A stretch of 64,000 bases of DNA from Candidatus Staskawiczbacteria bacterium (GTDB lineage: Bacteria; Patescibacteriota; Minisyncoccia; Minisyncoccales; Staskawiczbacteraceae): the NCBI GenBank assembly GCA_041661545.1, contig JBAZUH010000001.1:544148-608147 (forward strand). The letters are read 5' to 3'. Positions 141 through 63,330 of the stretch are shown piece after piece. The translations under genes and the position numbers were made by a program. The first letter of the stretch is position 1. Each line of letters opens with the position of its first letter. The notes below the pieces were generated by a model. The model was given only the letters and a program-made list of their open reading frames with translations, was not told the DNA's origin and did no database searches.

Positions 141-1070
141 TTAATTTATATAGTATTTACCGTTGTCGGAATTTATAAATCCTTTCAACTGCATTAACGA
201 TAAAGTGGTGCCAAGCTGGGCAACAGGGGTTGAAAAAAGTCGAGCCATTTCGTCAGCTTTCATAGACTCTCTTTTTAATTGTTCAATAATTTTATTCTCT
301 AAGGTGCCACGCTTACCCGCCGACTTGTCCGCCGAAGTTTTAACGAGGGTGGAAGCCTTTTGTGCACTAGGCAATATTTTAAAAAAATCTAAAATTTGTT
401 TGGCCTCAATTATTGGTTCAGCTCCCTCTCTTATCAATTCAATTGTTCCTTTTGAAACTTCGCTAGTAATAGGGCCCGGCACAGCAAAAATTTTTCTATT
501 AAATTTTTTAGCATAATTTGCAGTAATTAAAGAACCCGACTTTAAAGCAGCTTCTGTAACTAAAACTGCCTTACAAAGCCCGGCCACAATTCTATCTCTC
601 TGCACAAAAGAATAATTTGTTGGCTTAAACCCCGGCTCATATTCTGAAATTATTAGACCGTTATTATCTAAAATTTTATGATAAAGTTCTTTTTGCTGTG
701 GAGGAAAAATTATATCCACCCCACATGGCATAACAGCAATTGTTTTTCCACCGCATTTTACAGCAGCAGAATGAGCCGCTTCATCGCCTCCATACATAAA
801 TCCAGAAACAATTGTAATTCCAGATGCAGCAGCTTCTGTTACCAACTGCTCGGTTACTCTTCTGCCATAAGAAGTTAAATGACGCGAGCCTACAACCGCC
901 AAACAATTTTCTCCCGCCGCAGCGGGATCCCGCCTATCGGCGGGAAAAAATGCATTCCAATTTCCTTTATAATACAATTTTTTAGGACCCGAACTTGCAA
1001 CAAGGTTTTTTAACGCCTCTTTTAAAGCTTTAGGATATTTTGAATCTGTAATTTCAACAGCTTCTACCAT
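141..1070 (-). CDS. dprA: DNA processing protein DprA (Smf)
   Basis: 309 aa with DprA core motifs LAVVGSRHLTSYG, IVSGFMYGGDEAAH, FVQRDRIVAGL and LVTEAALKSGSLITA. Lies next to comM. Confidence 0.9.
   Translation of the reverse strand: MVEAVEITDSKYPKALKEALKNLVASSGPKKLYYKGNWNAFFPADRRDPAAAGENCLAVVGSRHLTSYGRRVTEQLVTEAAASGITIVSGFMYGGDEAAHSAAVKCGGKTIAVMPCGVDIIFPPQQKELYHKILDNNGLIISEYEPGFKPTNYSFVQRDRIVAGLCKAVLVTEAALKSGSLITANYAKKFNRKIFAVPGPITSEVSKGTIELIREGAEPIIEAKQILDFFKILPSAQKASTLVKTSADKSAGKRGTLENKIIEQLKRESMKADEMARLFSTPVAQLGTTLSLMQLKGFINSDNGKYYIN
315..355. repeat. GC-rich ACCCGCC-type element inside dprA, in frame
   Basis: ACCCGCCGACTTGTCCGCCGAAGTTTTAACGAGGGTGG stands out from the AT-rich coding context. 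It encodes the linker ..TSADKSAGKRGT.. and shares the ACCCGCC...GGGT termini with the other copies listed below. Confidence 0.5.
912..945. repeat. GGATCC-core double-hairpin element (copy 1), in frame in dprA
   Basis: TCCCGCCGCAGCGGGATCCCGCCTATCGGCGGGA folds as two adjacent hairpins (TCCCGC/GCGGGA and TCCCGCC/GGCGGGA). It encodes FPADRRDPAAAGE just before the conserved AVVGSR motif. Confidence 0.8.
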
Positions 1071-13810: not shown

Positions 13811-14566
13811 TTATATGCCTGTATTTTGATTTTCTTGTGACTCAGTAAAGTTTCCATTTTCAAATTCAACCTCCTCACCCACTTGCGAAGACACACCTTT
13901 TTTTGGCACCTGCAATTGTTTTTGAAGATGGTTAATTTGAGATGATAACAATTGTTTTGTGTTTCTTGCATCGGTTATTATTTTTTCAATTAAACCTTGT
14001 AAGAACTTTTCTCTTTCTACTAATTCATTATCTTTGGCCTTATAATCAATAAGCAATGATTCATATTTCTTAATCCAGTCTTTTTTCTCAGCCCGGTCTT
14101 CTTTTAATATTTCTAAAAACTCTCGGTCAACGGTTATTTGATCGGGCGCATAAGCGGTGGGCTCGGCGCTTCTGCGATTTGGCTTAGGTTCTTCTGACCG
14201 CTTAAGCGGTTCTTCTAACTGACTAGATATTTCACTAGACTGTTCCGGTACCACCGCATAAGCGGTAGGCTCGGCGCTTAAGCGGTTTGGTTCAGGTTCA
14301 TCTGACCGCTTAAGCGCTTCTTCAGACCGCTTAAGCGGTACCGCATAAGCGGTTTCTTTTGCTATAGCTTCTAACTCTTTAACCCAAAAATCTTCTTTTA
14401 AAAGAATAACATTCCCCACTCCTTTGTCATACCTTTCAGTTAAAACTCCCTCTAATTTTTGTGGGTCTACCAATCTATACTTTCTAATTCTTCTTCTAAT
14501 CCTAACATCTGGAACTTCATATTTTTGAATAAATTCTTGTATTGTTAAAAATTCGTTATTATCCAT
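13811..14566 (-). CDS. HTH-like (excisionase/MerR-type N-terminus) protein with an internal tandem repeat and a C-terminal coiled coil
   Basis: 251 aa. N-terminus FLTIQEFIQKYEVPDVRIRRRIRKY. Two repeats of about 36 aa (..LKRS[DE]EP[EK]PNR.SAEPTAYA..). The CDS contains 4 perfect and 3 degenerate copies of the palindrome found upstream. Confidence 0.5.
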   Translation of the reverse strand: MDNNEFLTIQEFIQKYEVPDVRIRRRIRKYRLVDPQKLEGVLTERYDKGVGNVILLKEDFWVKELEAIAKETAYAVPLKRSEEALKRSDEPEPNRLSAEPTAYAVVPEQSSEISSQLEEPLKRSEEPKPNRRSAEPTAYAPDQITVDREFLEILKEDRAEKKDWIKKYESLLIDYKAKDNELVEREKFLQGLIEKIITDARNTKQLLSSQINHLQKQLQVPKKGVSSQVGEEVEFENGNFTESQENQNTGI

Positions 14567-15957: not shown

Positions 15958-16093
15958 CTTGTTTCTAGCTTAGCATTTTCAAACAAGCTAGTCAAATAGT
16001 TATGCACAATTATTTGTCTGCTATTTTAAGAAAAAATATGTAAAAAAAGAGCGCCATATTTGTGAGATAGACGCATAACAGCAAGAAAGGATT

Positions 16094-17518
16094 TCACGGA
16101 ATGTCCGTAGATTTGGCTATCGCTTGGGCGGGGTTTTGAGCCTTCCATGCGCCCGAATCAGTAGAGCTGTAGACATATCCGCCCATGACCGTCGCAGTCA
16201 TACTGCGAAAGTCTACGGATGCGGACACGTCAGACCAATTCTGCTTGTCGGCAACCGGCTCCCAATCCACCCCGAAATTGCCAGAGGTGTAAAGCGAGCC
16301 TCCAGACTCTGCAGCCAAGAATCGACGACCATCGCCCGAACACTTAATGGCCACCCATTTCCGAACATTGTCGGTTAACCGTGGTTGCCACGTCTGCATA
16401 AAGTCAGTGGAGATGTAGATATATCCACCATTTACAGTGGCGCCCCAAAACTGGGCGTTATAATTGGTTGTTAGGTCCGTCCAATCGCGGGACTCGCCAA
16501 CGGGCTTCCATGTCTGGCCCCCGTTGTAGGACGCATAAAGCCAACTATTGGAGGCTGCTACCCCCCGAAATTGACCACCAAAATCCATCTCGCCAGCCAC
16601 CCAATTCGGGCCAGCAAACCCGGTCGTCTCCCAGCTATCCCCCCAATCATACGTCTGCCAGATGTATCCACCTGGATCAACGGCCATCAGAAGTTGGCCA
16701 TCATCAGAAGTTGCTACGGACCTCCACCGGATTTTCAGGTCGCCCTCATAGGGCAAGTCGTATGCTTTCCAGGTCTGACCATAGTCAGCGGACCCATATA
16801 ACTCTCCATCAAGGGTCCCTATAATCTGGTTTTGGCCATAATAGGACACGGCGACGCAGGAAGGTTTATCTATATCTACGGTCCGCCAAGTGCTCCCGCC
16901 ATCGGCGGAGACATAAACTGGCGCGTTGCCAGCGATAAGCGTCCTATATTTTCCGTCACCAGACATGGAAGCACCGTTCCATGCAAGACTGGGACTGCCC
17001 ACGGCAGGTGAGGGGGGATTGGGTGTGTTACCACCATCGCCACCACCACCATTGCCACCGCCAGGACCTCTGCTCCCATCTCCTCCACCAATGGGGCCGA
17101 AAGAATAAAATGGAACAGATTCCTTGGTCTTATGCCTGATTATGGGGCTCCAATTAGCATAAGCCGTTGGTGTCGTCGCAGGATTAGATGTTGTTGTGCG
17201 CGAACCAAAGTTGGTTCGTGCAATGCTCGCCTGCGGGGCAACAACCTCTGCTCGAGGAATATTCGTGCCAGCTCTCTTTAAACTGACTTGGCCTTCGTTG
17301 TGTCCACTGGATTTCAAATTCCAGGGCTTGTATTTGTTCGCGGTCAAGCCTTGACCCGACCTAAACAATTTCAACGACGGCCTTTCGGGCTCGCTGAGCC
17401 ACACTACAAAAAAGATCGGCACTAGCAGTGCCAGTAGAGTAGCGCCCAGTTTCTTGAGCCCTATCTTCTGCAAAACCGCCGTCGCGGTAGAAATCTTCTC
17501 AAGGCTTTTTGTGTTCAT
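16094..17518 (-). CDS. Membrane-anchored Asp-box (BNR) repeat beta-propeller protein, on a GC-rich island
   Basis: Seven SxDxGxTW-like boxes (SADGGSTW, SADYGQTW, TYDWGDSW, SYNGGQTW, STDFMQTW, TSGNFGVDW, STDSGAW). Gly/Pro linker and TM anchor. ATG at 17518 is preferred over the GTG at 17581 because AAGGAG sits 10 nt upstream. Confidence 0.7.
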   Translation of the reverse strand: MNTKSLEKISTATAVLQKIGLKKLGATLLALLVPIFFVVWLSEPERPSLKLFRSGQGLTANKYKPWNLKSSGHNEGQVSLKRAGTNIPRAEVVAPQASIARTNFGSRTTTSNPATTPTAYANWSPIIRHKTKESVPFYSFGPIGGGDGSRGPGGGNGGGGDGGNTPNPPSPAVGSPSLAWNGASMSGDGKYRTLIAGNAPVYVSADGGSTWRTVDIDKPSCVAVSYYGQNQIIGTLDGELYGSADYGQTWKAYDLPYEGDLKIRWRSVATSDDGQLLMAVDPGGYIWQTYDWGDSWETTGFAGPNWVAGEMDFGGQFRGVAASNSWLYASYNGGQTWKPVGESRDWTDLTTNYNAQFWGATVNGGYIYISTDFMQTWQPRLTDNVRKWVAIKCSGDGRRFLAAESGGSLYTSGNFGVDWEPVADKQNWSDVSASVDFRSMTATVMGGYVYSSTDSGAWKAQNPAQAIAKSTDIP

Positions 17519-17604
17519 GGCTGACTTTCTCCTTTCCAAAAAGTTTTCAATGCTAGAAGTGGTTGACAAAATGTCTTCCACGTTGCTTCTAGCGTGCTAC
17601 TTCA

Positions 17605-17633
17605 ATAATGCTATTTAAAGTGCATCTTGTCAA
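17605..17633 (-). promoter_or_regulatory. Putative promoter of the BNR gene
   Basis: The minus strand reads TTGACA, 17 nt, CATTAT. Confidence 0.45.
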
Positions 17634-17674
17634 GGGTTTTTCACTTGCTTCTATATATATGATATAATACACAA

Positions 17675-18535: not shown

Positions 18536-18539
18536 AATC

Positions 18540-20525
18540 ATGTTTCAACAATTCTCATTTCTAAAAAATAAATATTTATTTTTCACTCTTTTCTGTTTTA
18601 TTATATTACTAGGAGCATTAATGCCCGTACACGTCTTAGCCGAATCAAATGACAGTGCTGGCTGGGGTAATACAGGAGATAGATCAAAAATAATAAATCT
18701 ATTTACTTCTGCATCTCCTGATTCTTTCTCTCCCGAAGGTGGTTGGGATGCAACAACGTGGCCCAAATATTTAATTGGATATTTATTATTTTCAATCGTA
18801 TGGCTAGCCTTCAAAATAGCTGCTTTAGCACAGTTGTTATTATCTTATGTATTGGGTGTAATTGTAAGCTTATCAATAACCAAAGATCCTAATTGGCTTC
18901 CAATATGGGGCAGCCTTAGAGATTTAGGAAATATGGTTATTGTATTGGGATTCGTAGTAGTAGGCATTGCTACATCTCTAAGATTTAAAGACTATGAAGC
19001 TAAAAAGATCTTGTTGCCTTTGATACTAGTTGCTATTCTAATCAACTTCTCCGGATTAGTTTGTGGATTAATTATAGATGCGTCTAATTTAGTAACTACT
19101 GGATTAATAGAGGGAAGTGAAGCTTCCATGATGCCATATAACGTCTTACAACAAATGATTCTCGTTAGCTCGTGCGTGCATACCACAGGACACGATGCGG
19201 GGCCCGATGCATATGTTGAAGTATCAACGTCAGTAAACACCCCCTCGTGTATTTCAACCGAAAATTATGATAAAGATCTTAAAATATTTATAGCAATATG
19301 TTGTTTATGGATGATTTTGTACTTAGCCATAGGTCTTACATTTTTATATATGGCAGTTTTACTTTTGGCAAGATATGCCATTTTAATAATGTTATTTATA
19401 TTATCTCCTTTAGCTTTCACTTTCTGGGTTTTTCCAATTACTAAAAAATTGTGGCAAGAGTGGTGGAATCATTTTGTAAAATGGTGTTTTGTTGGAGTCT
19501 ATGCATCGTTTACTCTCTACATAGCTACTACCATTATAACAAAAGTGCCCATCGTGGGAGGCACTGCAGACAACCTGAATAGTGACTTATGGCAACTAAC
19601 TCTTGTATATTCTATTGCAATAGTATTTTTGATTGTTGGATTTAAAATGACCGTCAGCAAGGTTGGAGGAGCCGCTGTAACAGCTATTTTGGGACTAGCA
19701 ACTGGTGGCGCGGCTTTGGCCGGTAGAGCAACCCTTGGTGCAACCAAACTTGCTGGAAGAGGAATCGGAGCCGGAGCCAGAGCATTAGATAATAAAGCTA
19801 CTGGCGGAAAGGTTACTTCGGCGATAGGCAACATGGGTAGGAAGGTTGGTAGCAGTACCGGAAGATTTCTGGATGCTATGGCAGGAACTCCTGGTGCTAG
19901 AGCTGGAGGTGTAGCGAAAGAATTCTCAGCAGGCTCTGATAGAATTGGAGATATGGATTTAGCCAGCCAAGTTAAATTAGCTTCAGGCAAAGGAATGGGT
20001 GGCATGGCAAGAACAAAAGAAAGAGCTGAGGCAGTACAAGCCTTGGCAAAAAGCGGAAATCTTTGGAGAATTAGCGATGATATAAATGAACAATCAAGAG
20101 CCGTTAATTTTGCAGATAAATATATGCAAAGCAAAGGGATAGATGCCACTAAATTTAGAGGGGACGTTAGCAAGAATGCTCCTGTGCTAGAAGCATACAA
20201 TCGTCCTATTGTAGAAAAAATTCAACAACAGCATCCAAATTGGAGCCCTGCTCCCGACGCAAGCTTGGGTGGATTAACTCGAGCTCAACATGAAGCGGTT
20301 GTACGTGCAGTAGCGAGAATGCCAGAAGACGGTTTAAATGCCAGCACGGCAAAATCAATGCATCATTCTGCTATAACAGCAGCGGGAGCTAGAATGAACG
20401 ATAGAAAAAAACAAACATGGCAAAAAGCTTCTTATAATGATATGCGCCAAGAGGCGCTGGCTATGAATGCTGGGCCAGAACAAACCGCCTTGGCAGAAAG
20501 AGCAAGAGCAATGTTTGATTTATAA
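18540..20525 (+). CDS. Polytopic membrane protein, TrbL/VirB6-like by architecture
   Basis: 661 aa. Signal peptide (..VHVLAES), at least 6 TM helices, Gly/Ala-rich segment, hydrophilic C-terminal third. No motif-level proof. Confidence 0.5.
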   Translation: MFQQFSFLKNKYLFFTLFCFIILLGALMPVHVLAESNDSAGWGNTGDRSKIINLFTSASPDSFSPEGGWDATTWPKYLIGYLLFSIVWLAFKIAALAQLLLSYVLGVIVSLSITKDPNWLPIWGSLRDLGNMVIVLGFVVVGIATSLRFKDYEAKKILLPLILVAILINFSGLVCGLIIDASNLVTTGLIEGSEASMMPYNVLQQMILVSSCVHTTGHDAGPDAYVEVSTSVNTPSCISTENYDKDLKIFIAICCLWMILYLAIGLTFLYMAVLLLARYAILIMLFILSPLAFTFWVFPITKKLWQEWWNHFVKWCFVGVYASFTLYIATTIITKVPIVGGTADNLNSDLWQLTLVYSIAIVFLIVGFKMTVSKVGGAAVTAILGLATGGAALAGRATLGATKLAGRGIGAGARALDNKATGGKVTSAIGNMGRKVGSSTGRFLDAMAGTPGARAGGVAKEFSAGSDRIGDMDLASQVKLASGKGMGGMARTKERAEAVQALAKSGNLWRISDDINEQSRAVNFADKYMQSKGIDATKFRGDVSKNAPVLEAYNRPIVEKIQQQHPNWSPAPDASLGGLTRAQHEAVVRAVARMPEDGLNASTAKSMHHSAITAAGARMNDRKKQTWQKASYNDMRQEALAMNAGPEQTALAERARAMFDL

Positions 20526-20543
20526 ATATTAATTAATAATATA

Positions 20544-21167
20544 ATGGTAAATAATCAACAAAAAATTATTATTTTTGAGAATCAAGGCTCTAAAAGCATA
20601 TGGGCGATTATTTCAGAAGTTTTAAAAGATAATGGGATGGAAGAAACAGCCATTGATTTTTTCAAAAAAGTGGACGAGAAGAAAATACCATTTTCAAGCA
20701 TAATATATAAATTATCTAGAAAACTTGCTCAAGAAGAAATTACAGAAGAAAATTTTGTTACATCAATCAAAGACCAATTAAAAATTGAGCAACAAGTTGC
20801 TGAAAAAATATTAAAAGATGTAAAAGAAAAAATTTTACCGCTGGCTAGAACGCTTGAAAAAGATGAACTAGTAAAAGATGAAACAATTAGCACTGTGCCA
20901 CAGAGCCTAAAAACAATAAATAAAAATTTCTCACCGGCAACAGAAAAAAATAACATAAATATTTCTGGCTCAGAAATTTTGGCTAATGAGCCAATAGATT
21001 CTTTGCCAAAAAATGAAACTCAAAATATTGCAAACACAATTACTCCTGCGACCATTGAAACACCAACAAAAAGAATTAGAAAACCTTTACCTAAAAAACC
21101 TTTTGTACCAGAAACTCAACCAACACAACCTAGCAAGCCAGATTCTTATAGAGAACCTATAGAGTAA
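20544..21167 (+). CDS. Hypothetical protein with Pro/Thr-rich C-terminus
   Basis: 207 aa, follows the VirB6-like gene on the same strand. Confidence 0.45.
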   Translation: MVNNQQKIIIFENQGSKSIWAIISEVLKDNGMEETAIDFFKKVDEKKIPFSSIIYKLSRKLAQEEITEENFVTSIKDQLKIEQQVAEKILKDVKEKILPLARTLEKDELVKDETISTVPQSLKTINKNFSPATEKNNINISGSEILANEPIDSLPKNETQNIANTITPATIETPTKRIRKPLPKKPFVPETQPTQPSKPDSYREPIE

Positions 21168-21180
21168 AAGCAGTAAACAA

Positions 21181-21209
21181 CCCCACACCAATTTCGGGTG
21201 GGGTTTTTT
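21181..21209 (+). terminator. Terminator after 20544-21167
   Basis: CCCCACACC-AATTTC-GGGTGGGG followed by TTTTTT. Confidence 0.7.
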
Positions 21210-21213
21210 ATTT

Positions 21214-21270
21214 AAAAAAAGGGGCGAGCTTCGTGGTGTCGTGTAAAAAACGACACCATCGAAGCCCGCC
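21214..21270 (-). terminator. Long-stem terminator of the GC-rich SPFH-like gene
   Basis: GGCGAGCTTCGTGGTGTCGT / ACGACACCATCGAAGCCCGCC form an imperfect stem of about 20 bp. The T-run is on the minus strand. Confidence 0.6.
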
Positions 21271-21289
21271 TTTGGGTTATGTTCTGAGG

Positions 21290-22468
21290 TTACAGGCCGT
21301 CCAAATCGTCCGGCCCCAACTCTATCGCTGGCGGAGGCGAACCTCCACCAGGCTGATTGCGTCTGTCACCACGACGATTCCCCCCGTCTCCCCGAGCCAA
21401 TGGCTGAAGAGCATTGCCGAGTTCGCGTGCCAACGTAACACCGGCTGCGAAGTTGGCCTCAATCGGTTGGCCACCGCTGGTGACATCAAACTTGGTGAAT
21501 CCGCGACCAGCGAGCGCCTGCGATCGTAGTTGCTCAAGCGCCTGTTTATGTTGAGCATATTCACCACTTCTTTTCAGCTTGGCAACGAGTTTCTTCATCG
21601 CCACCGAATCCGACGAGTCAACTCCCGCGAGCCTTGCTTCTTCGGTAATCCATTCTTGCATGGCAAGCTGGACCGGGCCAAAAACCCGCGCCTTTTCGCC
21701 TTCAGCCAACAATTGCTGTTTGCTTTTGGCCTCCAAGGCTTCCTGATATCCGGGCTGGTATCCCACATCTTCAACGATGACAGAATTTTCCAGAATCCGA
21801 AGACCCCAGTCATTTTCCATCGTCGTGAAAACAGGAAGCGATCCCTGATTAACCAGGTCTTGCCAAAGCTGGGCGCCATTACCCCTGGCGGCTTGAGCAC
21901 GCTCTTGTGAACCGCCACGAACCCATGCTCGCAACGTTGAATCCATCCGCCGTATAACCTGAGCGCTAACGTCGCGGGGTGCCACAAACAGCCATTTGTA
22001 CAGGTTGACGATTCTCATGACGGAAACGAATTTCACGTCAAGTGGAACGCTCTCAGGAGCTGCCGTTTCTGCTTTAGAGATCATGGGTTCAGGAGCGACG
22101 TTTCCGACGCGGACATGAATGCCCGCACCAAACATGTCGGCACTTCCATTCTGCTGAGCGTATCGAACGGCCGAGACAAACGGCCATAGATAAATCACCC
22201 AGCCCCCAAAACGGCACATAAACCATGACCCCTGGCCATAGCCGTCGGGGTAATCTCCCTCGACAACGTTGCCGTTTTCATCGAAGCCATGCCCCCTGAA
22301 ATTCATCCCTAGGTAGCAGAAGCTACCGAAGCTGAGAAAGGCAATGGCTGTGCCTTCTCGGATGATTGCCACCCTAATAATACGCAACGCCCAGAGGAGG
22401 AAGATTGTGAAAATCATCCACCAAAGGTGATCGCTCAGCCAATCGAACACTGAATATATCGCTTGCAT
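21290..22468 (-). CDS. Membrane-anchored SPFH/band-7-like protein, on a GC-rich island
   Basis: Start taken at MQAIYSVFDW (ATG at 22468). N-terminal TM. The segment IIREGTAIAF...VKFVSVMRIVNLYKWLFVAP.DV resembles an SPFH fold pattern. Coiled-coil and Gly/Arg-rich tail. Confidence 0.45.
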   Translation of the reverse strand: MQAIYSVFDWLSDHLWWMIFTIFLLWALRIIRVAIIREGTAIAFLSFGSFCYLGMNFRGHGFDENGNVVEGDYPDGYGQGSWFMCRFGGWVIYLWPFVSAVRYAQQNGSADMFGAGIHVRVGNVAPEPMISKAETAAPESVPLDVKFVSVMRIVNLYKWLFVAPRDVSAQVIRRMDSTLRAWVRGGSQERAQAARGNGAQLWQDLVNQGSLPVFTTMENDWGLRILENSVIVEDVGYQPGYQEALEAKSKQQLLAEGEKARVFGPVQLAMQEWITEEARLAGVDSSDSVAMKKLVAKLKRSGEYAQHKQALEQLRSQALAGRGFTKFDVTSGGQPIEANFAAGVTLARELGNALQPLARGDGGNRRGDRRNQPGGGSPPPAIELGPDDLDGL

Positions 22469-22609
22469 TTTGGTTGTTGGTTGTTGGTTGTGGTTGGTTG
22501 GTTTTGAACAGTCACTTAACGGTTGGCGCGAGAACACCTCGCTCCACACAGGAATTACCCTGCGTTCATAATGAAAACCGTGTTTGACAATGTTCTTTCA
22601 GATACATTT

Positions 22610-32100: not shown

Positions 32101-32128
32101 AAAAAGCCCCGCTATAGCGGGGCTTTTT
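32101..32128. terminator. Bidirectional terminator (T4SS-like operon / jag)
   Basis: AAAAAGCCCCGC-TATA-GCGGGGCTTTTT. Confidence 0.85.
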
Positions 32129-44145: not shown

Positions 44146-44156
44146 TTGAAAAATAA

Positions 44157-44180
44157 AAAATCACTCAATTGAGTGATTTT
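44157..44180. terminator. Bidirectional terminator
   Basis: AAAATCACTCAATTGAGTGATTTT (perfect palindrome). Confidence 0.8.
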
Positions 44181-44187
44181 TATTTAG

Positions 44188-49698: not shown

Positions 49699-50613
49699 AT
49701 GGAAAAAAATCAGAGGTTAATTATTATAGATTCTAATGCATTGTTGCACAGGTCGTTTCATGCTTTGCCACCGCTAAAAACAAAATCAGGGCAGGAGACT
49801 GGGGCTGTTTATGGATATTTGCTTACACTTTTTAAGGCACTAACTGATTTATGTCCCTCCGGGACATCTCCCGAAGGGAGAAAACCTCTCTATATTGTTG
49901 CTTGTTTTGATACAAAAGGGGCAACATTTCGCCACGAAATGTATAAAGATTATAAAGTGCAAAGGCCAGCAACTCCTAGTGGAATTGTTTCACAAATTCC
50001 TGTGGCAAAAGAAGTTGTTGAAGCCTTGGGCATTCCTATTTTTGCTAAAGAGGGGGTAGAGGCCGATGATTTAATTGCTACTATTTGCACAAAAAATTCA
50101 GAATTAGAAATTTTTATTGTTTCTGGAGATATGGATAATACTCAACTAGTTAATGAAAAGATAAAAGTTTATACTTTGGGCAAAGGGATAAAAGATACAA
50201 TTATTTATGATATTAACAGGGTGCGAGAAAGGTTTGGAGTAGAGCCTTCGCAAATGGTAGATTTTAAAGCTTTAATGGGTGATGCTTCTGATAACATCCC
50301 AGGAGTTGAAGGTATTGGAAAAAAAACAGCAGCAGAAATAATACAAAAATATGGCAGTATAAAAAATCTTTATGAGGAGTTGGCCACAGACACAGCTGTT
50401 TTAAAACCAAAAGTAAAAGAAGCTTTAAAGCAAAACAAAGAATCTGCTTTAATGTCTCTTGAATTAGCACGAATGAAAGCAGATGTTGATATAGATTTTA
50501 AAATTGAAGATTGTAAATTTGGAAATTTTGACAAAAATAAAGTTGCGGAAGTTTTTAATAGTTTAGAATTTTATAGTCTCGTTGACCGCTTGTCACAGTT
50601 GGGCTATAATTAA
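49699..50613 (+). CDS. Stand-alone 5'-3' exonuclease (Pol I N-terminal/FEN-type)
   Basis: 304 aa with IIDSNALLHRSFHALP, GVEADDLIAT and H3TH motif GDASDNIPGVEGIGKKTA. Confidence 0.87.
   Translation: MEKNQRLIIIDSNALLHRSFHALPPLKTKSGQETGAVYGYLLTLFKALTDLCPSGTSPEGRKPLYIVACFDTKGATFRHEMYKDYKVQRPATPSGIVSQIPVAKEVVEALGIPIFAKEGVEADDLIATICTKNSELEIFIVSGDMDNTQLVNEKIKVYTLGKGIKDTIIYDINRVRERFGVEPSQMVDFKALMGDASDNIPGVEGIGKKTAAEIIQKYGSIKNLYEELATDTAVLKPKVKEALKQNKESALMSLELARMKADVDIDFKIEDCKFGNFDKNKVAEVFNSLEFYSLVDRLSQLGYN
49853..49881. repeat. GC-rich double hairpin insert in the exonuclease gene, in frame
   Basis: GTCCC-TCC-GGGAC A TCTCCC-GAA-GGGAGA, encoding LCPSGTSPEGRK between conserved blocks. Confidence 0.7.
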
Positions 50614-51255: not shown

Positions 51256-52167
51256 ATGCCAGAGCTACCCGAAGTAGAAACAACAGTGAAAGGTTTAAAT
51301 GCAAAGGTCCTTAATAGGACCTTTGTTTCTGTTTGGTCTGATTGGAAAAAGTTAGTTAAAAAACCGAAAGATTTTTTGCAATTTGAAAAACAAATAAAAA
51401 ATAAAAAAATTATAAAAATATGGCGTAGAGCCAAAAATATAATATTTGATTTGTCTGGAGGCCTCTCGCTTTTAGTGCATCAAAAAATGACGGGTCATAT
51501 GTTGGTGGGCAAGTGGTCCCGCCACAGCGGGATCCCGCCCGAGGCGGGAAGCATATGGAAACCAATAAAAGAAGGTCCGCTTAATGATCCATATAATAGG
51601 TTTTTGCATTTGATATTTTTTCTTGATAATAAAGAAATGATAGCTCTTTCAGATGCTAGAAAATTTGCAAAAGTTGAGTTATGGGAAAAAAAAGAATTAG
51701 AAAGCGAACTTAAAAAAATAGGGCCTGAGCCCTTGGAAAAATCTTTTACTTTTGAAAAATTTAAAGAAAATTTGTTATGGCAAAACCCGCCTTCGCCAAG
51801 GCTACGGCAGGGCACAGTAAAGCAGATTTTAATGGTGCCAGAAGTGATAGCTGGCATTGGAAATATTTATGCATCAGAAATTTTATGGTGGGCAAAAGTT
51901 CATCCCCAAAAAAGTGTTGCAAAGCTAAATGAAAAAGAGTTAAGGTTAATTTATAAAGCTATAAAAAGCGTTTTACAAAAAGCAGTTAAATTGGGTGGAG
52001 AAAGTTTCTCTGATTATAGAAAGCCAGATGGAACCAAAGGAGATTTTGATACAGAAAGAAGAGTTTATAAAAGAGAGGGGCAAAAGTGTGGCAGGTGTAG
52101 CGTAAAAATTAAAAGAATTAAATTTGGCGGTAGAAGCACCTTTTTCTGCCCCAAATGCCAATCATGA
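51256..52167 (+). CDS. mutM: Formamidopyrimidine-DNA glycosylase
   Basis: 303 aa with MPELPEVET, GIGNIYASE and zinc finger CGRC..CPKC. Confidence 0.92.
   Translation: MPELPEVETTVKGLNAKVLNRTFVSVWSDWKKLVKKPKDFLQFEKQIKNKKIIKIWRRAKNIIFDLSGGLSLLVHQKMTGHMLVGKWSRHSGIPPEAGSIWKPIKEGPLNDPYNRFLHLIFFLDNKEMIALSDARKFAKVELWEKKELESELKKIGPEPLEKSFTFEKFKENLLWQNPPSPRLRQGTVKQILMVPEVIAGIGNIYASEILWWAKVHPQKSVAKLNEKELRLIYKAIKSVLQKAVKLGGESFSDYRKPDGTKGDFDTERRVYKREGQKCGRCSVKIKRIKFGGRSTFFCPKCQS
51517..51549. repeat. GGATCC-core double-hairpin element (copy 2), in frame in mutM
   Basis: TCCCGCCACAGCGGGATCCCGCCCGAGGCGGGA, encoding SRHSGIPPEAG. Confidence 0.85.
51785..51819. repeat. ACCCGCCT...GGCAGGGCACAGTA element, in frame in mutM
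   Basis: ACCCGCCTTCGCCAAGGCTACGGCAGGGCACAGTA, encoding NPPSPRLRQGTV. Confidence 0.7.
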
Positions 52168-53460: not shown

Positions 53461-55476
53461 TTATTTGTTATTCAATTTTTTTATTAAATCTCTTATCTCA
53501 GCTGCTCTTTCAAAATCTAAATTTTTTGCCGCTATTTTCATTTCTTTTTCTAAAAGTTTTTGGTCATGTATTGCAAAAAATTCTTCATTAATGCTTTCTT
53601 TATCTGAGTTTGCAGAAGAATCTTTAGAAAATTTCCAATCTCTTATGTTAGAAACAATTGTTGCAGGAGTTATATTATTTTTTTTATTATAATCTTCTTG
53701 TATTTTTCTTCTTCTGTTTATTTCTTTTATAGCATTTTTCATAGACAGAGTTTCTTTATCAGCATACAAAATAACTCGTCCATTTAAATGTCTAGCAGCC
53801 CTTCCCATAGTTTGTATTAATGTTGTTTCGTTTCTCAAAAATCCTTCTTTATCAGCATCCAAAATAGCCACTAAAGAAACTTCTGGTAAATCTATTCCTT
53901 CTCTTAGTAAATTAATTCCTACAAGTACATCATATTTGCCCTCTCTGAGATTTTTTAATATTTCGGGCCTCTCCATAGTTTTGATTTCAGAATGTAGGTA
54001 TTGAGTTTTTATCCCTTTTTCGGTTAAATAATCAGAGATTTCTTCAGCCAGTTTTTTTGTTAAGGTAACAACAATTGTTCGATGTTTTTTATCTACTTGT
54101 TTTTTTATTTCTTCTATTAGGTCTTTAATTTGGTTTTCGGTTTTTTTTATTTCTATAGATGGCTCTAAAAGTCCGGTAGGTCTTATTATTTGCTCAATAA
54201 TATGGCTATTAGCCTTTTGCTTTTCAAAAATAGCGGGGGTGGCCGATACATAAATTGTTTGTTTTTGTCTTTCTTCAAATTCTTTAAAATTTAAAGGTCT
54301 ATTATCAATGGCCGAGGGCAATCTAAACCCAAAATCAATTAGGGTTTGTTTTCTAATTCTGTCTTGTACTGACATGGCCCTAATTTGAGAAATAGAAATA
54401 TGTGACTCATCTATAAAAATTAATGACCCGCCAGGGGCCTGCTCTGAGCCTGCCTGCAGTGAGCTTGTCGAATCTGTCGAAGGGTTAAAATAGTTAAAGT
54501 AATCAACTAAAGAGAAAGGGGCTTGCCCGGGTTTTCTAAACTCCATATGGCTAGAATAATTTTCTATGCCCTGGCATCGGCCAGTTTCAGCCAACATTTC
54601 TAAATCGTAGTTTGTTCTTTGTTCTAATCTTTCTGCTTCTAAGTTTTTGCCTAATTTTTTAAGTTTTATTAGTTGGTTTTTTAATTCTGTTTTTATATTT
54701 TCAATTGCAATTTTAAATTTATCTTGAGGGGCTACCCAAAAAGTAGCGGGGAATAATGTAATTTTATCTCCCGATGATTGGTATTTTTTATCTAAACTTG
54801 GGGTGGACTCAGAAATTTTTTCTATTTTGTTTCCATTAAATTCAATGCGAAATATTTTTTCTCCTGTAACTATATATATTTCAACCATATCTCCTCTAAC
54901 GCGAAAAGTGCCCGGCTTAAAATCAATATCATTTCTTTGATATTGCAAGCCTGTAAGTAAAATCAAAAAATCTTTTCTTGTAATTTTTTCATTTACTTTA
55001 ATTTCTAAAGAAGTGCGTCCATAGTTTTCTGGAGAACCAATATTATAAATACAAGAGACCGAAGCAACTACTATAACATCTTTTCTTGCTATAACATCTT
55101 GAACAGCTGCATGGCGCAACCTATCTATTTCTTCATTAATTTTTGCGTCTTTTTCTATATATGTATCTGAATGCGGTATATATGCTTCTGGTTGATAATA
55201 GTCATAATAAGAAACAAAATAATGAACTGCATTGTTAGGAAAAAATTCTTTAAACTCTTGATATAGTTGAGCAGCCAAAGTTTTATTTGGAGAAATTATT
55301 AGGGTTGGTTTTTGTATTTTTTCAATAACATTTGCTAAAGTAAAAGTTTTTCCCGATCCCGTTACGCCCAAAAGCACCTGGTCTTTTATGCCAGATTCTA
55401 AATTATTGGTCAGTTGTTTTATAGCATTTGGCTGATCTCCTGTGGGTTTAAATTTTGATTTTAGTTTAAATTTCAT
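53461..55476 (-). CDS. uvrB: Excinuclease ABC subunit B
   Basis: 671 aa with GVTGSGKTF, FIDESH, helicase motifs and a C-terminal UVR domain (LDFERAAEIRD). Confidence 0.96.
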   Translation of the reverse strand: MKFKLKSKFKPTGDQPNAIKQLTNNLESGIKDQVLLGVTGSGKTFTLANVIEKIQKPTLIISPNKTLAAQLYQEFKEFFPNNAVHYFVSYYDYYQPEAYIPHSDTYIEKDAKINEEIDRLRHAAVQDVIARKDVIVVASVSCIYNIGSPENYGRTSLEIKVNEKITRKDFLILLTGLQYQRNDIDFKPGTFRVRGDMVEIYIVTGEKIFRIEFNGNKIEKISESTPSLDKKYQSSGDKITLFPATFWVAPQDKFKIAIENIKTELKNQLIKLKKLGKNLEAERLEQRTNYDLEMLAETGRCQGIENYSSHMEFRKPGQAPFSLVDYFNYFNPSTDSTSSLQAGSEQAPGGSLIFIDESHISISQIRAMSVQDRIRKQTLIDFGFRLPSAIDNRPLNFKEFEERQKQTIYVSATPAIFEKQKANSHIIEQIIRPTGLLEPSIEIKKTENQIKDLIEEIKKQVDKKHRTIVVTLTKKLAEEISDYLTEKGIKTQYLHSEIKTMERPEILKNLREGKYDVLVGINLLREGIDLPEVSLVAILDADKEGFLRNETTLIQTMGRAARHLNGRVILYADKETLSMKNAIKEINRRRKIQEDYNKKNNITPATIVSNIRDWKFSKDSSANSDKESINEEFFAIHDQKLLEKEMKIAAKNLDFERAAEIRDLIKKLNNK
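54426..54485. repeat. GC-rich insert of about 60 nt in uvrB, in frame
   Basis: ACCCGCCAGGGGCCTGCTCTGAGCCTGCCTGCAGTGAGCTTGTCGAATCTGTCGAAGGGT. It encodes NPSTDSTSSLQAGSEQAPGG immediately before the DESH box, where E. coli UvrB (from memory) has only ..DYLPADGLLVVDESH. Confidence 0.7.
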
Positions 55477-55498: not shown

Positions 55499-56092
55499 AT
55501 GATAGCATTTTTAGAGGGAAAAATTATATTAAAAAAGGAGAAGTTTGTGATTGTTGAAGTGGCCGGCATTGGCTACAAGGTTTTTTTAAACCGCCAAGCC
55601 CTAATAACTTTACCCGCCTCCGCTCCAGAAGAGCTTCGGCAGGGCAAGCCAGAAATTAATTCTGTAAAACTCTTTATATACCATGAGACAAAAGAAGACA
55701 AGTCTGATTTGTATGGATTTCTTACTTATGAGGAATTTGAATTTTTTGAGATATTAATGGACATTAGAGGAGTGGGGCCAAGGTCAGCATTAGATATTTC
55801 AGCTTTAGGTTCTTTAGACAAAATAAAAGATAGAATTTTAAAACAAGACGAAAAAATATTTGAGGGCATTCCAGGAATTGGTTCAAAAAAGGCAATGACT
55901 ATAATTTTAGAGCTTACAGGTAAAATAAACATACTCGGTCAGAAAAAAAGTTCTGGCGACGAAGCAGAAAGCGCTTTGGTTCAGCTTGGGTTTTCAAAGC
56001 AACAAGCCAAAGATGCTTTGAGTCGTGTGCCCGCCTCTATAAAAGATTCAGAAGAGCGCATAAAATTAGCTTTAAAAAATTTAGGCAAATAA
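55499..56092 (+). CDS. ruvA: Holliday junction DNA helicase subunit RuvA
   Basis: 197 aa with VEVAGIGYKV and HhH motifs IRGVGPRSAL and IPGIGSKKA. Confidence 0.9.
   Translation: MIAFLEGKIILKKEKFVIVEVAGIGYKVFLNRQALITLPASAPEELRQGKPEINSVKLFIYHETKEDKSDLYGFLTYEEFEFFEILMDIRGVGPRSALDISALGSLDKIKDRILKQDEKIFEGIPGIGSKKAMTIILELTGKINILGQKKSSGDEAESALVQLGFSKQQAKDALSRVPASIKDSEERIKLALKNLGK
55612..55650. repeat. ACCCGCCT...GGCAGGGCA element, in frame in ruvA
   Basis: ACCCGCCTCCGCTCCAGAAGAGCTTCGGCAGGGCAAGCC, encoding PASAPEELRQGKP in the OB-domain loop. Confidence 0.7.
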
Positions 56093-56525: not shown

Positions 56526-57812
56526 ATGAGCGTTAAAGAAATAATTCACCCGATTAAATACCGCGAAGCGTTGATTTCGTTTTTAACGAAATCATTTAAC
56601 CGGGTAAAAAAATTTATACCGAAATTTTTGATAAGAATTTATCATTATAAATTAGCTTTGTTGGGAGCTGTGGTTTTTGGTTTTCCTGGCCTTAATAAAA
56701 ATATAAAAATAATAGGGGTAACAGGCACCAGTGGGAAATCAACTACAGTAGATTTTGTAACCAGAATTTTTGACGAGGCAAATGAAAAGGTGGCTTCGGT
56801 GTCTTCTATTAGATTTAAAGTTGCAAATAAAGAATGGGAGAATAAATATAAAATGACAATGCCTGGCCGTTTTGTAATTCAAAAACTATTGAGCCAGGCA
56901 AAAAAAGCAGGTTGTAAATATGTTGTTTTAGAGGTTACATCAGAGGGAATAAGACAATTTCGTCATAAATTTATAAATTTTGATTGTGTGGTTTTTACTA
57001 ACTTAACACCCGAACATATTGAAAGTCATGGAGGGTTTGAAAATTATAAAAAAGAAAAATTAAAATTATTTAAAGAAAATAAAAATATACATATTATAAA
57101 TATAGATGACAAAAATTCAAAAGAATTTTTGGATATTCCAGCTAAACAAAAAATTGAATTTTCTATCAAAGATGCAGAAAATATAAAGTTTGATTCCAAC
57201 TTAATTAGTGGGTTTAATATTTATAATGCTTTATCTGCTATTTCTGTTGCAAGAGTTTATGGGATTAGTTTAGATGTTTGTAAAAAAGCTTTAGAAAAAA
57301 TAAAAGTTATTCCAGGAAGAATGGAAGTGGTGTTAGAATTTCCTATTAAAGTTATTGTTGATTATGCGCATACCCCCGACCAACTTGAAGCAGTTTATAA
57401 AACATTTTCCGCCAAAGGCGGATCCGCCTTTGGCGGAAGCCTCGTTTGTGTTTTAGGTTCTTGTGGTGGGGGAAGAGACAAATGGAAAAGGCCTGTTTTA
57501 GGAGAAATAGCAAAAAAATATTGTAAAGAAATTATAATTACCAACGAAGACCCATATGACGAAGATCCACTTTCTATTATGAAAGAAATAGAAAGTGCCC
57601 TGTTGTATGACGGGGCTAATTCTAAGCACCATATGATTTTAGACAGGAAAGAAGCCATAGAAAAGGCAATAAAGCTTGCTAAACCTGGAGATGTGGTTAT
57701 AATTACAGGAAAGGGGTCTGAACCTTGGATGTGTCTAGAAAATGGACGCAAAATACCATGGAACGATAAGCAAATAGCACAAGATGCTGTTAAAAAATTT
57801 TTTACCCCGTAA
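56526..57812 (+). CDS. Mur ligase family protein (MurE-like)
   Basis: 428 aa with IGVTGTSGKSTT, DYAHTPDQLE, GGGRDKWKRP and GKGSE. Confidence 0.8.
   Translation: MSVKEIIHPIKYREALISFLTKSFNRVKKFIPKFLIRIYHYKLALLGAVVFGFPGLNKNIKIIGVTGTSGKSTTVDFVTRIFDEANEKVASVSSIRFKVANKEWENKYKMTMPGRFVIQKLLSQAKKAGCKYVVLEVTSEGIRQFRHKFINFDCVVFTNLTPEHIESHGGFENYKKEKLKLFKENKNIHIINIDDKNSKEFLDIPAKQKIEFSIKDAENIKFDSNLISGFNIYNALSAISVARVYGISLDVCKKALEKIKVIPGRMEVVLEFPIKVIVDYAHTPDQLEAVYKTFSAKGGSAFGGSLVCVLGSCGGGRDKWKRPVLGEIAKKYCKEIIITNEDPYDEDPLSIMKEIESALLYDGANSKHHMILDRKEAIEKAIKLAKPGDVVIITGKGSEPWMCLENGRKIPWNDKQIAQDAVKKFFTP
56548..56605. repeat. AT-rich three-way-junction element B2 (within the annotated 5' end of the Mur ligase gene)
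   Basis: ACCCGATTAAAT ... ATTTAACCGGGT closing stem (1 mismatch) enclosing CGC-GAA-GCG and GATTTCG-TTTTTAA-CGAAATC. Confidence 0.55.
57417..57448. repeat. Perfect 32-nt palindrome with GGATCC core (copy 4, variant), in frame in the Mur ligase gene
   Basis: TTCCGCCAAAGGCGGATCCGCCTTTGGCGGAA, encoding SAKGGSAFGG between DYAHTPD and the GGGRDK block. Confidence 0.85.
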
Positions 57813-61126: not shown

Positions 61127-62098
61127 ATGATAGAAAATATAAAAGAAGAAATTGAAGATAAAATTATAGATTATATTAATTCTAGCGTAACTGGTAGATT
61201 GATAGTTTTTAAGCCCGATAAAAAGGGGATGGATGACTATTTAGTTGTAGAAAGAAGAGGAAAATATAAAGAAGATAAAATATATCTTGAAATTAATAGT
61301 TTAGTTTTGCCAGCCCAAAATAAAAATTTTATAAAAGATTTTTCGCAAGAAAAGTTTAAAGCAGACAAAAACTTTTATTTAATTTTTGCTTACTTTGACG
61401 AAGTTACACAAAAAATAAATGATTATATATGGATTATTCCATCATTAAAGTTTCAAGATATAGCGGAGGTTGTAAAACATTCCAACAACAAGAAGTCTCT
61501 AAGGTTTGAGTCTTCTTCTAATTTTAAAGATAAAAATAAATATTCTGAATTCTTAATAAACATAAAAGATTTAGGAGATATATTATTAGGGGCTTTAAAA
61601 GACAAAAAGCAAGCTAAATTTCAGGCAGTTGATTTTGATGGTAAAAGTTTGATAAATTTAGAAAATTTAAAAGAATTTTTATGTAATGCTCGTCAAAATA
61701 CTTATGCAGCAAACTCATCGGGAATAGATAATCCAAGGCTTTTAGAATCTAAACAGCTAGAATTTCAAAAGGGGGAATATTTTTATAGGGATGTTTATTT
61801 TACTGGTAAAACAAAATTTATAGGCCAAGAAATTATTTATCAAGATTTAAAGCCTATTTGGGGTATGAATTATATAGGAAAAGCTATTGGCAAATTAGAA
61901 ACAAATTTTTTAAAAGAATCTTTAATGGAGTTATCTGATAAATGTCGTCTTGGACAAGAATGTGAATATAATAAAAGAGAATATAAATATAAAGACAAGG
62001 GGGTTGGAGATGTTAGTGAATTTTCTGGTAAAGAGGAAATTCTCTTAAATGAAAAAAGTATTTATAAATTAGATTATCAGGGCGGTTTAATCTCATGA
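61127..62098 (+). CDS. Two-domain protein: unassigned N-terminal domain plus DUF5680-like C-terminal domain
   Basis: 323 aa. The C-terminal part (FLCNARQNTYAA.., PIWGMNYIG, FLKESL, FSGKEEI, YQGGLI) matches my recollection of DUF5680. ATGA overlap with the next gene. Confidence 0.45.
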   Translation: MIENIKEEIEDKIIDYINSSVTGRLIVFKPDKKGMDDYLVVERRGKYKEDKIYLEINSLVLPAQNKNFIKDFSQEKFKADKNFYLIFAYFDEVTQKINDYIWIIPSLKFQDIAEVVKHSNNKKSLRFESSSNFKDKNKYSEFLINIKDLGDILLGALKDKKQAKFQAVDFDGKSLINLENLKEFLCNARQNTYAANSSGIDNPRLLESKQLEFQKGEYFYRDVYFTGKTKFIGQEIIYQDLKPIWGMNYIGKAIGKLETNFLKESLMELSDKCRLGQECEYNKREYKYKDKGVGDVSEFSGKEEILLNEKSIYKLDYQGGLIS

Positions 62099-63330
62099 AG
62101 TTTATAGCAGATTTTCATATACACTCAAAATATTCTAGGGCAGTGTCTCCTTTAATGAATTTAGAAAATTTAGCTAAGTGGGCAGAAATAAAAGGAGTAA
62201 AAGTTTTAGGCACAGGTGATTTTACTCACCCTAAATGGCTTGGCGAAATAAAAAAACAACTAAGCCCCGCAGAGCGGGGTCTTTTTTCCCGCCACAGCGG
62301 GATCCCGCCAAAGACGGGAAAGCTTGGCAGTAAAACTCGTTTTATTCTTACAACTGAGATAAGTTGTATATATAAAAAACTAGGAAAAGTTAGAAAAATT
62401 CATATTATTGTTTTTGCTCCATCAATAGCCACGGTAGAAAAAATAAACTTAGCATTATCTAAAATTGGCAATTTACATTCAGACGGTAGGCCAATTTTGG
62501 GGCTAGATGCAAAAGAGTTAGTAAAGATTGTTTTAAATATAGATAAAAATTGTTTAATAGTGCCAGCTCATGCCTGGACACCATGGTTTTCTATTTTTGG
62601 CTCAAAGTCAGGATTTAATTCTTTAGAGGAGTGTTTTGAAGAATATACAAAATATATTTATGCAATTGAAACTGGGTTGTGTTCAAATCCTGCTATGAAT
62701 TGGAGAATATCTAAACTAGATAAAATTACTTTAATTTCTAACAGTGATGCACACTCTCTTGCTAAAATTGGACGGGAAGCAAATGTTTTTGATACGGAGC
62801 TGAGTTATAAGGGGATTGTTGAGGCCATTAAGTTTCCAGAAAAAAAGTTTTTATATACTATAGAATTTTTTCCTGAAGAAGGTAAATATCATTATGATGG
62901 TCATCGTAATTGTGGTATAAGTTTAGCTCCTCAACAATCTAAAAAGAATAATAATATATGTCCTAAATGCAACAAACCCTTGATAATAGGGGTTTTAAAT
63001 AGGGTAGAAGAATTGGCTGATAGGCCAGAAGGATTTTTGCCTAAAAAAGGAATTCCATTTAAAAGTTTAATTCCTTTAAATGAAATAATAGCTGAATCAA
63101 TTGGCGTTTCAACAGCATCAAAAAAAGTTATAAAATATTATGATAATTTAATAAAAAATTTAGGACCAGAGTTAGAAATATTATTAGAATCAACAGAAAA
63201 AGATATAAAAGAAAAATCTTTACCAGAAATTGCCAAAGGGGTTATAAAAATGCGCAAGGGGCGCGTTTTTATTGAGCCAGGATATGACGGTGTTTATGGA
63301 AAAATTAATATTTTATTTAATAATGGTTGA
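62095..63330 (+). CDS. PHP-domain endonuclease Q-like protein
   Basis: 411 aa with FIADFHIHSKYSRA, PAHAWTPWF, SNSDAHS and Zn-ribbon CPKCNKP. Confidence 0.72.
   Translation: MKFIADFHIHSKYSRAVSPLMNLENLAKWAEIKGVKVLGTGDFTHPKWLGEIKKQLSPAERGLFSRHSGIPPKTGKLGSKTRFILTTEISCIYKKLGKVRKIHIIVFAPSIATVEKINLALSKIGNLHSDGRPILGLDAKELVKIVLNIDKNCLIVPAHAWTPWFSIFGSKSGFNSLEECFEEYTKYIYAIETGLCSNPAMNWRISKLDKITLISNSDAHSLAKIGREANVFDTELSYKGIVEAIKFPEKKFLYTIEFFPEEGKYHYDGHRNCGISLAPQQSKKNNNICPKCNKPLIIGVLNRVEELADRPEGFLPKKGIPFKSLIPLNEIIAESIGVSTASKKVIKYYDNLIKNLGPELEILLESTEKDIKEKSLPEIAKGVIKMRKGRVFIEPGYDGVYGKINILFNNG
62287..62319. repeat. GGATCC-core double-hairpin element (copy 3), in frame in the EndoQ-like gene
   Basis: TCCCGCCACAGCGGGATCCCGCCAAAGACGGGA, encoding SRHSGIPPKTG. 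The first 24 nt are identical to copy 2. Confidence 0.85.

Follow-up and report, generated by a model that had tools for sequence, protein, structure and literature searches.

A perfect 32-nt palindrome in a Mur ligase gene of Candidatus Staskawiczbacteria is probably a copy of a dispersed GC-rich double-hairpin repeat

Selfish palindromic repeats within coding genes are already known from Rickettsia and from mitochondria. The mitochondrial GC clusters of yeast include optional in-frame copies in var1. The double-hairpin elements (DHEs) of Allomyces mitochondria, the subject of work by Paquin, Laforest and Lang in 2000, are said to consist of two adjacent GC-rich hairpins, to be somewhat longer than 30-34 bp and to lie in intergenic regions, introns and some coding regions, and their mobility was reportedly deduced from presence or absence between relatives. 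For the repetitive extragenic palindromic (REP) sequences, an extragenic position is part of the definition, and they are associated with a RAYT transposase and with a 5' tetranucleotide that is conserved. The Rickettsia palindromic elements (RPEs; Ogata et al., 2000) are about 150 bp long and lie in frame in many genes, with a conserved peptide per family, in a cited account that also gives the pneumococcal SPRITE as an example of terminator-like MITEs, the miniature inverted-repeat transposable elements (PMC10969869). The yeast GC clusters are very short GC-rich hairpin repeats in a very AT-rich genome and are mobile by a mechanism described as unresolved; GC42 copies are mostly intergenic, use the target dinucleotide AG and vary mainly in their loops, which was read as structural constraint (PMC4478555). 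Here we describe a perfect 32-nt palindrome in a Mur ligase gene of a Candidatus Staskawiczbacteria bacterium. It lies in a stretch of 64,000 nucleotides, called the window below (NCBI GenBank assembly GCA_041661545.1, contig JBAZUH010000001.1, positions 544,148 to 608,147 of the forward strand). The palindrome is probably a copy of a 30-34-bp GC-rich double-hairpin repeat, present as a neutral or selfish insertion and not as a functional signal. It is also likely that copies of this family are scattered through the AT-rich Staskawiczbacteria genome as well as those of other Parcubacteria and of other uncultivated bacteria with low GC.

By analogy, the closest precedents appear to be the RPEs in behaviour, which are also bacterial, and GC42 and the Allomyces DHEs in architecture. 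As with RPEs, a palindromic repeat lies in frame in housekeeping genes that are unrelated to one another, in a bacterial genome that is small and AT-rich. RPEs are tolerated as extra surface peptide segments and regarded as selfish DNA, and the present elements may be read likewise. Unlike RPEs, which are about 100-150 bp long and encode a conserved peptide module, the elements described here have 30-34 bp and a two-hairpin form, occur in different frames and orientations, and are found in the candidate phyla radiation (CPR) and in other phyla. No sequence relation to RPEs is known. GC-rich hairpins dispersed in an AT-rich genome, with presence or absence between relatives, are common to the GC clusters, the DHEs and the present elements, and two adjacent GC-rich hairpins are also the form of the DHEs. 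The likeness to these mitochondrial families is one of architecture only. The host here is a CPR bacterium, and unlike GC42 the elements are intragenic in the window, have no definable target duplication and include one copy that is decaying in its stems. With REPs, bacterial interspersed mosaic elements (BIMEs) and terminator-like MITEs they share short GC-rich imperfect palindromes, often as inverted pairs, in many dispersed copies. In contrast to REPs and BIMEs, all five double hairpins of the window are inside long open reading frames (ORFs), and there was no RAYT gene in the part of the window examined. The terminal inverted repeats of a MITE are present trivially, as the whole element consists of two inverted 16-nt arms. 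As for flanks, the sister type described below has a conserved T at -2 and A at +2, and the boundaries at the Mur site are ambiguous, the empty sites being 74-77% identical. Full-text literature searches returned no description of such elements for CPR/Patescibacteria.

The palindrome occupies positions 57407..57438 (no strand assigned) and reads TTCCGCCAAAGGCGGATCCGCCTTTGGCGGAA, which is identical to its own reverse complement throughout its 32 nt. A preliminary description of this DNA had rightly recognized it within the Mur ligase coding sequence but had placed it at 57417-57448, 10 nt too far to the right. Its edges are fixed, because T at 57406 stands opposite G at 57439 and extension is impossible. 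It is made of two back-to-back 15-nt hairpins, TCCGCC-AAA-GGCGGA (57408-57422) and TCCGCC-TTT-GGCGGA (57423-57437), with a central GGATCC, and encodes F-SAKGG-SAFGG-S. The GC content was 62%, compared with 32% in the window, and no reading frame of the element contains a stop codon. Two of its codons are rare in the genome, TCC (6% of Ser codons) and GCC (17% of Ala codons). In the folding computation, the strand alone formed a single 14-15-bp hairpin with a GAUC loop, and the two 15-nt hairpins were the alternative, so both two hairpins and one cruciform are possible, as the preliminary description had proposed. The energy was -28.0 kcal/mol as RNA (z = -5.9) and -18.4 kcal/mol as DNA (z = -6.1), and none of 200 shuffles was as stable. 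The window holds five perfect palindromes of at least 20 nt, compared with none in 19 of 20 block shuffles and one in the remaining shuffle, and the Mur palindrome is the sole GC-rich intragenic one among them. It is far above chance expectation.

The other four perfect palindromes of this length are AT-rich, and the three longest have A/T runs at their sides, as terminators do. AT-flanked perfect palindromes, 26-36 nt in length, lie at 12253-12284, 32101-32128, 44156-44181 and 14772-14807 and resemble bidirectional intrinsic terminators. The first of them, also 32 nt long, sits between an ORF ending at 12241 and an ORF starting at 12361. Palindromes of about 32 nt are routine outside genes in this genome.

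The host gene (56526..57812, plus strand) has a longest ORF of 428 aa, while the NCBI annotation gives 394 aa, with the start at 56628. Pfam detected Mur_ligase_M (PF08245, E = 4.4e-35) and Mur_ligase_C (PF02875, E = 7.3e-27), and protein P0001 from a Candidatus Staskawiczbacteria metagenome-assembled genome (MAG), on a contig of 737,971 bp, was 100% identical. Among solved structures, 13 of the top 15 matches were MurE or MurE-like (4bub, 7b6o, 1e8c, 2wtz, 4c12; E = 4e-50 to 1e-35). Moreover, the DYAHTP and GGxRDKxKRP motifs were invariant across the 120 closest Mur orthologues (66-77% identity). By these matches, the protein can be assigned to the Mur ligase family, MurE type. As regards the N-terminal UDP-MurNAc-binding domain 1, the alignments to 4bub, 7b6o and 4c12 begin at about chain residue 90, which corresponds to query residues 42-46, and the solved bacterial MurE proteins are longer than this one by about 70-100 aa.

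Within the protein, the in-frame palindrome falls after the DYAHTPDQLEAVYKTF helix and before the LVCVLGSCGGGRDKWKRP strand. By comparison with the nearest orthologues, which are 77% and 74% identical, the net inserted segment is 57417..57437 (plus strand), that is 21 nt or 7 codons encoding GGSAFGG. The codons are GCC AAA [GGC GGA TCC GCC TTT GGC GGA] AGC CTC in the window, GGT AAA [] AAT TTA in the related locus L001 and GGC AAA [] AAT TTG in L004. The placement of the insert is ambiguous inside the repeat, and the left part of the palindrome, TTT TCC GCC AAA, aligns with older codons (TTT TCA GGT AAA in L001). The number of residues in this part of the protein was 23 in the window, 19 in E. 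coli MurE and 16 in the nearest orthologues. These counts replace the earlier estimate of about 10 added residues with 7 relative to the nearest orthologues and 4 relative to the MurE of E. coli (1e8c/7b6o) and T. maritima (4bub), and, contrary to the preliminary description, E. coli MurE does not pass almost directly from one block to the other. A short loop, YKTF-xxx-NLICVLG, was present in 80 of the 120 orthologues, and KGGSAFG occurred in none of the 120, in line with the earlier view of an in-frame, lineage-specific insertion. In the AlphaFold (AF2) model (mean pLDDT 78.9; numbering of the longest ORF minus 34), the insert joins helix 250-260 to strand 272-276 of the C-terminal domain, and pLDDT falls to 64 across it. 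The consequence for the Mur ligase is probably nil, a surface loop longer by 7 Gly/Ser/Ala residues.

The identical 30-mer, TCCGCCAAAGGCGGATCCGCCTTTGGCGGA, was found in a JGI metagenome contig (L027) that belongs to another Parcubacteria genome; the Mur ligase there shares 65% identity with that of the window. Counts of TCCGCC-type elements cover the 64-kb window of the 738-kb genome plus the fetched loci. In L027 the 30-mer is read in frame as FSAKGGSAFGG, within the PolX palm domain. Eleven PolX orthologues read RxK(D/E)-GFD at this site, giving L027 a net gain of 6 residues (18 nt). The PolX of the window's own genome, on Logan contig L207, is without the 30-mer, and the L027 Mur ligase has the shortest loop of all, an empty site. 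Filled and empty sites are thus reversed between the two genomes, a pattern characteristic of independent insertions of one sequence, and the comparison shows that the 30-mer was inserted independently in another gene of another genome. The preliminary description had advised a comparison with other genomic copies, and the palindrome proved not to be unique, given the 30-mer in L027 and the sister copies in the window. Its membership of a family can be taken as established at the level of sequence.

Variants with one or both hairpins in common were found in the PHP domain of L020 PolX (SARGGFAFGG), in an ORF of L189, and in L007 at 13020-13085, within the loop of an intergenic terminator stem (AAAAGCCGCC ... 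GGCGGCTTTT). All four copies of this TCCGCC type that lie in ORFs read in the Ser-Ala-x-Gly-Gly frame. The remaining two frames would give FRQRRIRLWRK or PPKADPPLAE, and the chance of the other three copies sharing the frame of the first is about 0.04, which suggests that selection filters which insertions of this type survive. In L007, the stem and the inner double hairpin together have a three-way-junction-like layout. Two matches to viral contigs were set aside as uninformative, as these contigs have 53-55% GC and the loops are non-complementary.

A sister type is represented by three copies in the window. It has the form TCCCGC(C)-loop-(G)GCGGGA followed by TCCCGCC-loop-GGCGGGA, with the centre GGGATCCC. 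The first copy (912..945, minus strand), TCCCGC-CGCA-GCGGGA plus TCCCGCC-TATC-GGCGGGA, is in frame in the DprA gene (ORF 141..1070, minus strand) and encodes PADRRDPAAAG. The second (51517..51549, plus strand), TCCCGC-CACA-GCGGGA plus TCCCGCC-CGA-GGCGGGA, is in frame in the Fpg gene (ORF 51256..52167), encodes SRHSGIPPEAG and amounts to a net gain of 7 aa relative to L001. The third (62287..62319, plus strand), with one stem mismatch, is in frame in a PHP-like gene (ORF 62095..63330), whose orthologues in L001 and L004 match Pfam MJ0043_C, and encodes SRHSGIPPKTG. The three copies have a common 23-nt core in different genes, and the DprA copy is in the opposite orientation and in another frame. 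This constancy across orientations and frames indicates that the conserved unit is the DNA and not the peptide. Each arm of the Mur palindrome is one C:G pair shorter, which is the main difference from the sister type, and the AAA loop of the palindrome is common to the hairpin at 62303. A further double hairpin with other stems, TGTCCC-TCC-GGGACA plus TCTCCC-GAA-GGGAGA (49852..49881, plus strand, 30 nt), is in frame in ORF 49699..50613, a 5'-3' exonuclease gene identified via synteny with L001, and adds 10 aa relative to L001. Upstream of the element at 62287, the hairpin CCCCGC-AGA-GCGGGG (62265-62279) was rejected as an insertion; it encodes PAE(R/P)G, which is conserved in all orthologues.

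With one stem mismatch allowed, the window contained five GC-rich double hairpins, all within long ORFs, compared with about 0.1 in shuffles. Perfect GC hairpins with a stem of at least 6 bp numbered 13, with about 1 expected; nine were in ORFs and four intergenic. Furthermore, between 49 and 64 kb of the window, nearly every gene, when set against L001 or L004, has in-frame GC-rich insertions that add 7-16 residues, and L001 and L004 hold inserts of their own at other places, e.g., AATCCGCCAGCTGGCGGATT in the L001 Fpg. A census of perfect double hairpins restricted to GC-rich forms gave nine in the window and 82 related loci (0.96 Mb), compared with 0-1 in local shuffles, and five of the nine fall in the window. 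The restriction was used because an unrestricted census was swamped by AT-rich hairpins (545 compared with about 200 in shuffles). Similarly, a MAFFT alignment of 38 copies (A2) was out of structural register, as loop lengths vary, and hairpin scans with shuffled controls were used.

Further GC-rich in-frame inserts relative to L001 or L004 were observed in UvrB (+16 aa, 54429-54477) and RuvA (+11 aa, 55625-55658) and as a second insert in Fpg (+7 aa, 51775-51796). PNPase has a perfect hairpin, CCTGCC-GGTA-GGCAGG (10951-10985). These four features are not double hairpins of the same sequence.

The element at 62287-62319 was the one with an orthologous copy. The window reads TCCCGCCACAGCGGGATCCCGCCAAAGACGGGA and L004 (GCA_026395295.1) reads TCCCGCCACAGTCAGATCACGCCAAAGGCGGGA, while the other 18 aligned orthologues are without it. 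The stems have one change in the window and four in L004, none of them compensated, and the first hairpin is destroyed in L004. This uncompensated decay indicates that the hairpin is not under selection. The 62287 insertion is therefore old, inherited and drifting. The Mur palindrome is in neither L004 nor L001 and is still perfect, which fits an insertion younger than that at 62287. Taken at the sequence level, these comparisons point to elements that persist neutrally and are not maintained.

The sister motif was then scanned in one genome per species with the pattern TCCCGC-N3-5-GCGGGATCCCGC. The matches listed include many loci of Patescibacteria, Omnitrophota, WOR-3, Ignavibacteria and Bacteroidota; among them, 83 were in loci of less than 50% GC, and 32 of these 83 were deep within ORFs of at least 100 aa. 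In a separate scan, at least 32 complete sister double hairpins were found among the loci listed, with T at -2 in 26 of 32 and A at +2 in 24 of 32. Four of these 32 resemble the Mur palindrome in that their loops are complementary and the whole element is perfectly palindromic. In relatives, monomers with the same stems are terminator-like hairpins flanked by A-runs and T-runs (L018 at 8142, L030 at 4935).

A Roizmanbacteria contig (L092) contains a 55-nt multi-hairpin element in two inverted copies (633-687 and 4878-4932), 96% complementary, which flank 4.2 kb. The element contains the TCCCGC double-hairpin core, and the matches listed include, from several phyla, a variant whose end reads ...GGCGGTGAT. 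Judged from ORF translations, the 4.2-kb segment carries Fe-S cluster assembly (Suf-like), ribosome-related and TsaD-like genes, and no transposase was recognized among these translations.

The site in the Mur ligase was also compared among orthologues. About 40 of the 120 hold unrelated inserts exactly at this point, of 1-12 residues and mostly 6-7, and in distant Mur loci the inserts reach 28 residues. The DNA of these other inserts is of two kinds, microsatellite-like repeats or other hairpins. The repeats were (CCCTAAA)n, which is telomere-like, in L009, L020, L022 and L061, (AAATACA)n in L030, and (GAAATCC)n in L038 and L031; among the hairpins, L025 has a TCCCGC form and L036 one with a 21-bp stem (-45.6 kcal/mol). 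These alignments show the loop to be an insertion hot spot and a tolerant site. In-frame microsatellite-like inserts of the loop also include (ACTCATAA)n, and the lineages concerned also include L019 and L054.

These observations can be combined as follows. A copy of the element would have entered the Mur ligase gene after the split from the nearest sampled relatives. It would have survived because its net change is divisible by three, because it is stop-free in every frame, and because it landed in an insertion-tolerant helix-to-strand surface loop, where it is read as a Gly/Ser/Ala-rich extension of 7 residues. It would then persist as neutral or selfish DNA, with neither the hairpin nor the peptide being needed. 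The copying may have occurred by copy-in from another copy through a hairpin-recognizing single-strand transposase, or alternatively through recombination or repair with template switching, after which the arms may have been perfected intramolecularly. The elements could conceivably derive from terminators, because the monomers with the same stems form terminator-like hairpins in relatives.

Several points weigh against this explanation. The net gains of 21 nt (Mur) and 18 nt (PolX) are smaller than the 30-32-nt palindrome, and the left arm lies on old codons. Together with the excess of perfect forms, this fits poorly with cut-and-paste transposition and suggests recombination or template switching. 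No target-site duplication could be defined, as the nearest empty sites are orthologues only 74-77% identical, and Pfam detected no transposase or RAYT-like gene among the host genes and 10 ORFs located between 12.3 and 23.9 kb of the window. The exact TCCGCC type is represented by a single copy within the 64-kb window and by only a handful in the fetched loci, which total about 1.9 Mb. As the motif itself defined the cross-phylum scan, the matches do not demonstrate that all of them share one descent. Finally, the unrelated stems of the element at 49852-49881 could point to some process by which such structures arise, in place of a single mobile family.

A stronger version, in which the repeats form an undescribed class of ultra-small mobile DNA in CPR and low-GC phyla, moving within and between genomes by a hairpin-recognizing mechanism, with the Mur copy as a recent transposition product, is possible, and we put it forward only tentatively. 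We are equally hesitant about its corollary, that the elements survive preferentially as in-frame loop insertions in conserved proteins and correspond, in bacteria, to the GC clusters and double-hairpin elements of mitochondria. A single palindrome is modest in itself but points to a wider phenomenon that may be undescribed. If truly mobile, the family would be among the smallest bacterial transposable units and would make loop lengths vary in proteins of streamlined genomes that are otherwise highly conserved. A further consequence would be a practical nuisance that apparently breaks de Bruijn-graph contigs, inflates protein divergence and creates spurious small ORFs. Shared decayed insertions could serve as natural markers for the relationships of poorly resolved CPR lineages.

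Among the other explanations, a de novo local origin survives best, though it is unlikely. Here a template-switch or fold-back error would have perfected a short quasi-palindrome in the loop codons (TTT TCx Gxx AAA), with no donor. This would account for the left arm aligned with old codons, for a gain of 21 nt rather than 32, and for AAA and TTT loops that are exact complements, as inverted copying predicts; by a rough estimate with no computed control, the 4 perfect palindromes among 32 sister elements also exceed the approximately 0.3 expected if the loops were independent. However, the identical 30-mer in another gene of another genome and the near-identical hairpins in three more loci are hard to reconcile with a local event. 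Separate errors would not converge on one GC-rich 30-nt sequence from AT-rich flanks, and the AT-rich sequences of the empty sites cannot yield GC-rich arms. Template switching may nevertheless explain the perfecting of copies.

It is less likely still that the palindrome is a functional feature, for example a hairpin for attenuation or pausing inside the gene, a site for protein binding or GATC methylation, or a flexible linker of adaptive value. In its favour, the hairpin has high stability and is still perfect, a terminator consensus scanner found it terminator-like on both strands, and the four TCCGCC-type copies in ORFs are read in a uniform frame. However, the T-rich tail in the scanner result was weak. 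The form is not that of an intrinsic terminator, for a stem is present but the tail is CCUCGUUUGU, the U-tract is poor and displaced from the stem, and the element is mid-gene, with the stop codon 374 nt further on. Rfam gave no match around the palindrome even at E <= 1; elsewhere it gave four tRNAs only in the window and one tRNA only in L092, L027 and L007. The element is absent from all 120 closest orthologues, some of which hold unrelated inserts at the same site, its sister copies are in unrelated genes in either orientation and in different frames, and the orthologous sister copy decays uncompensated. The common frame follows more simply from purifying selection against the Arg/Trp-rich and Pro-rich frames. 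The preliminary description had considered the retention of the palindrome notable as a hazard. This found no support. Terminator-like perfect palindromes of 26-32 nt are common in the window, about one third of the orthologues carry unrelated inserts at the site and a sister copy decays.

The possibility of an artefact was evaluated with an independent Logan assembly of run SRR18595301, from which contigs of 3.5-4.9 kb were recovered through three window proteins. Contig L209 starts at window position 57409, inside the palindrome, with CCGCCAAAGGCGGATCCGCCTTTGGCGGAAGCC..., and showed 0 mismatches over 4513 nt, including 30 of the 32 nt of the palindrome. A break at this point would be the expected behaviour of a de Bruijn graph at a self-complementary 30-mer, and perfect palindromes of this family may fragment k-mer assemblies; contig L208 assembles through the imperfect DprA double hairpin. 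Collapsed, chimeric or adapter-like sequence, the scenario that the preliminary description had named as its refutation, is therefore extremely improbable: chimeric reads can create perfect palindromes, L209 breaks exactly at the palindrome and so leaves the left junction outside the second contig, and look-ups of the Mur ORF (394/428 aa) and the upstream 142-aa ORF gave no second contig for the left side, but two assemblers agree over 30 of 32 nt and a 4.5-kb flank, neither the reading frame nor the conserved residues beside the insert are disrupted, an unrelated metagenome contig from JGI carries the same 30-mer in frame, sister elements are shared between orthologous genes of different MAGs, and the plasmid and phage collections gave no match to the palindrome that would point to a vector or linker.

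Two other features of the window were observed. Another GC-rich palindrome, ACCGC-TTAA-GCGGT with its variants, forms dense arrays at 14142-14726. They include a 35-nt tandem unit repeated 3.3 times with 98% identity (14608-14724), and they partly overlap ORF 13811..14566 (minus strand), which is without a Pfam match. The region 16000-22500 has 43-47% GC, compared with about 32% elsewhere. Its large ORFs include an rRNA dimethylase gene as well as 16094..17581 (weak Sortilin-Vps10 match), 18540..20525, 20544..21167 and 21290..22549, otherwise with no Pfam match, and the region may be horizontally acquired or encode surface proteins.

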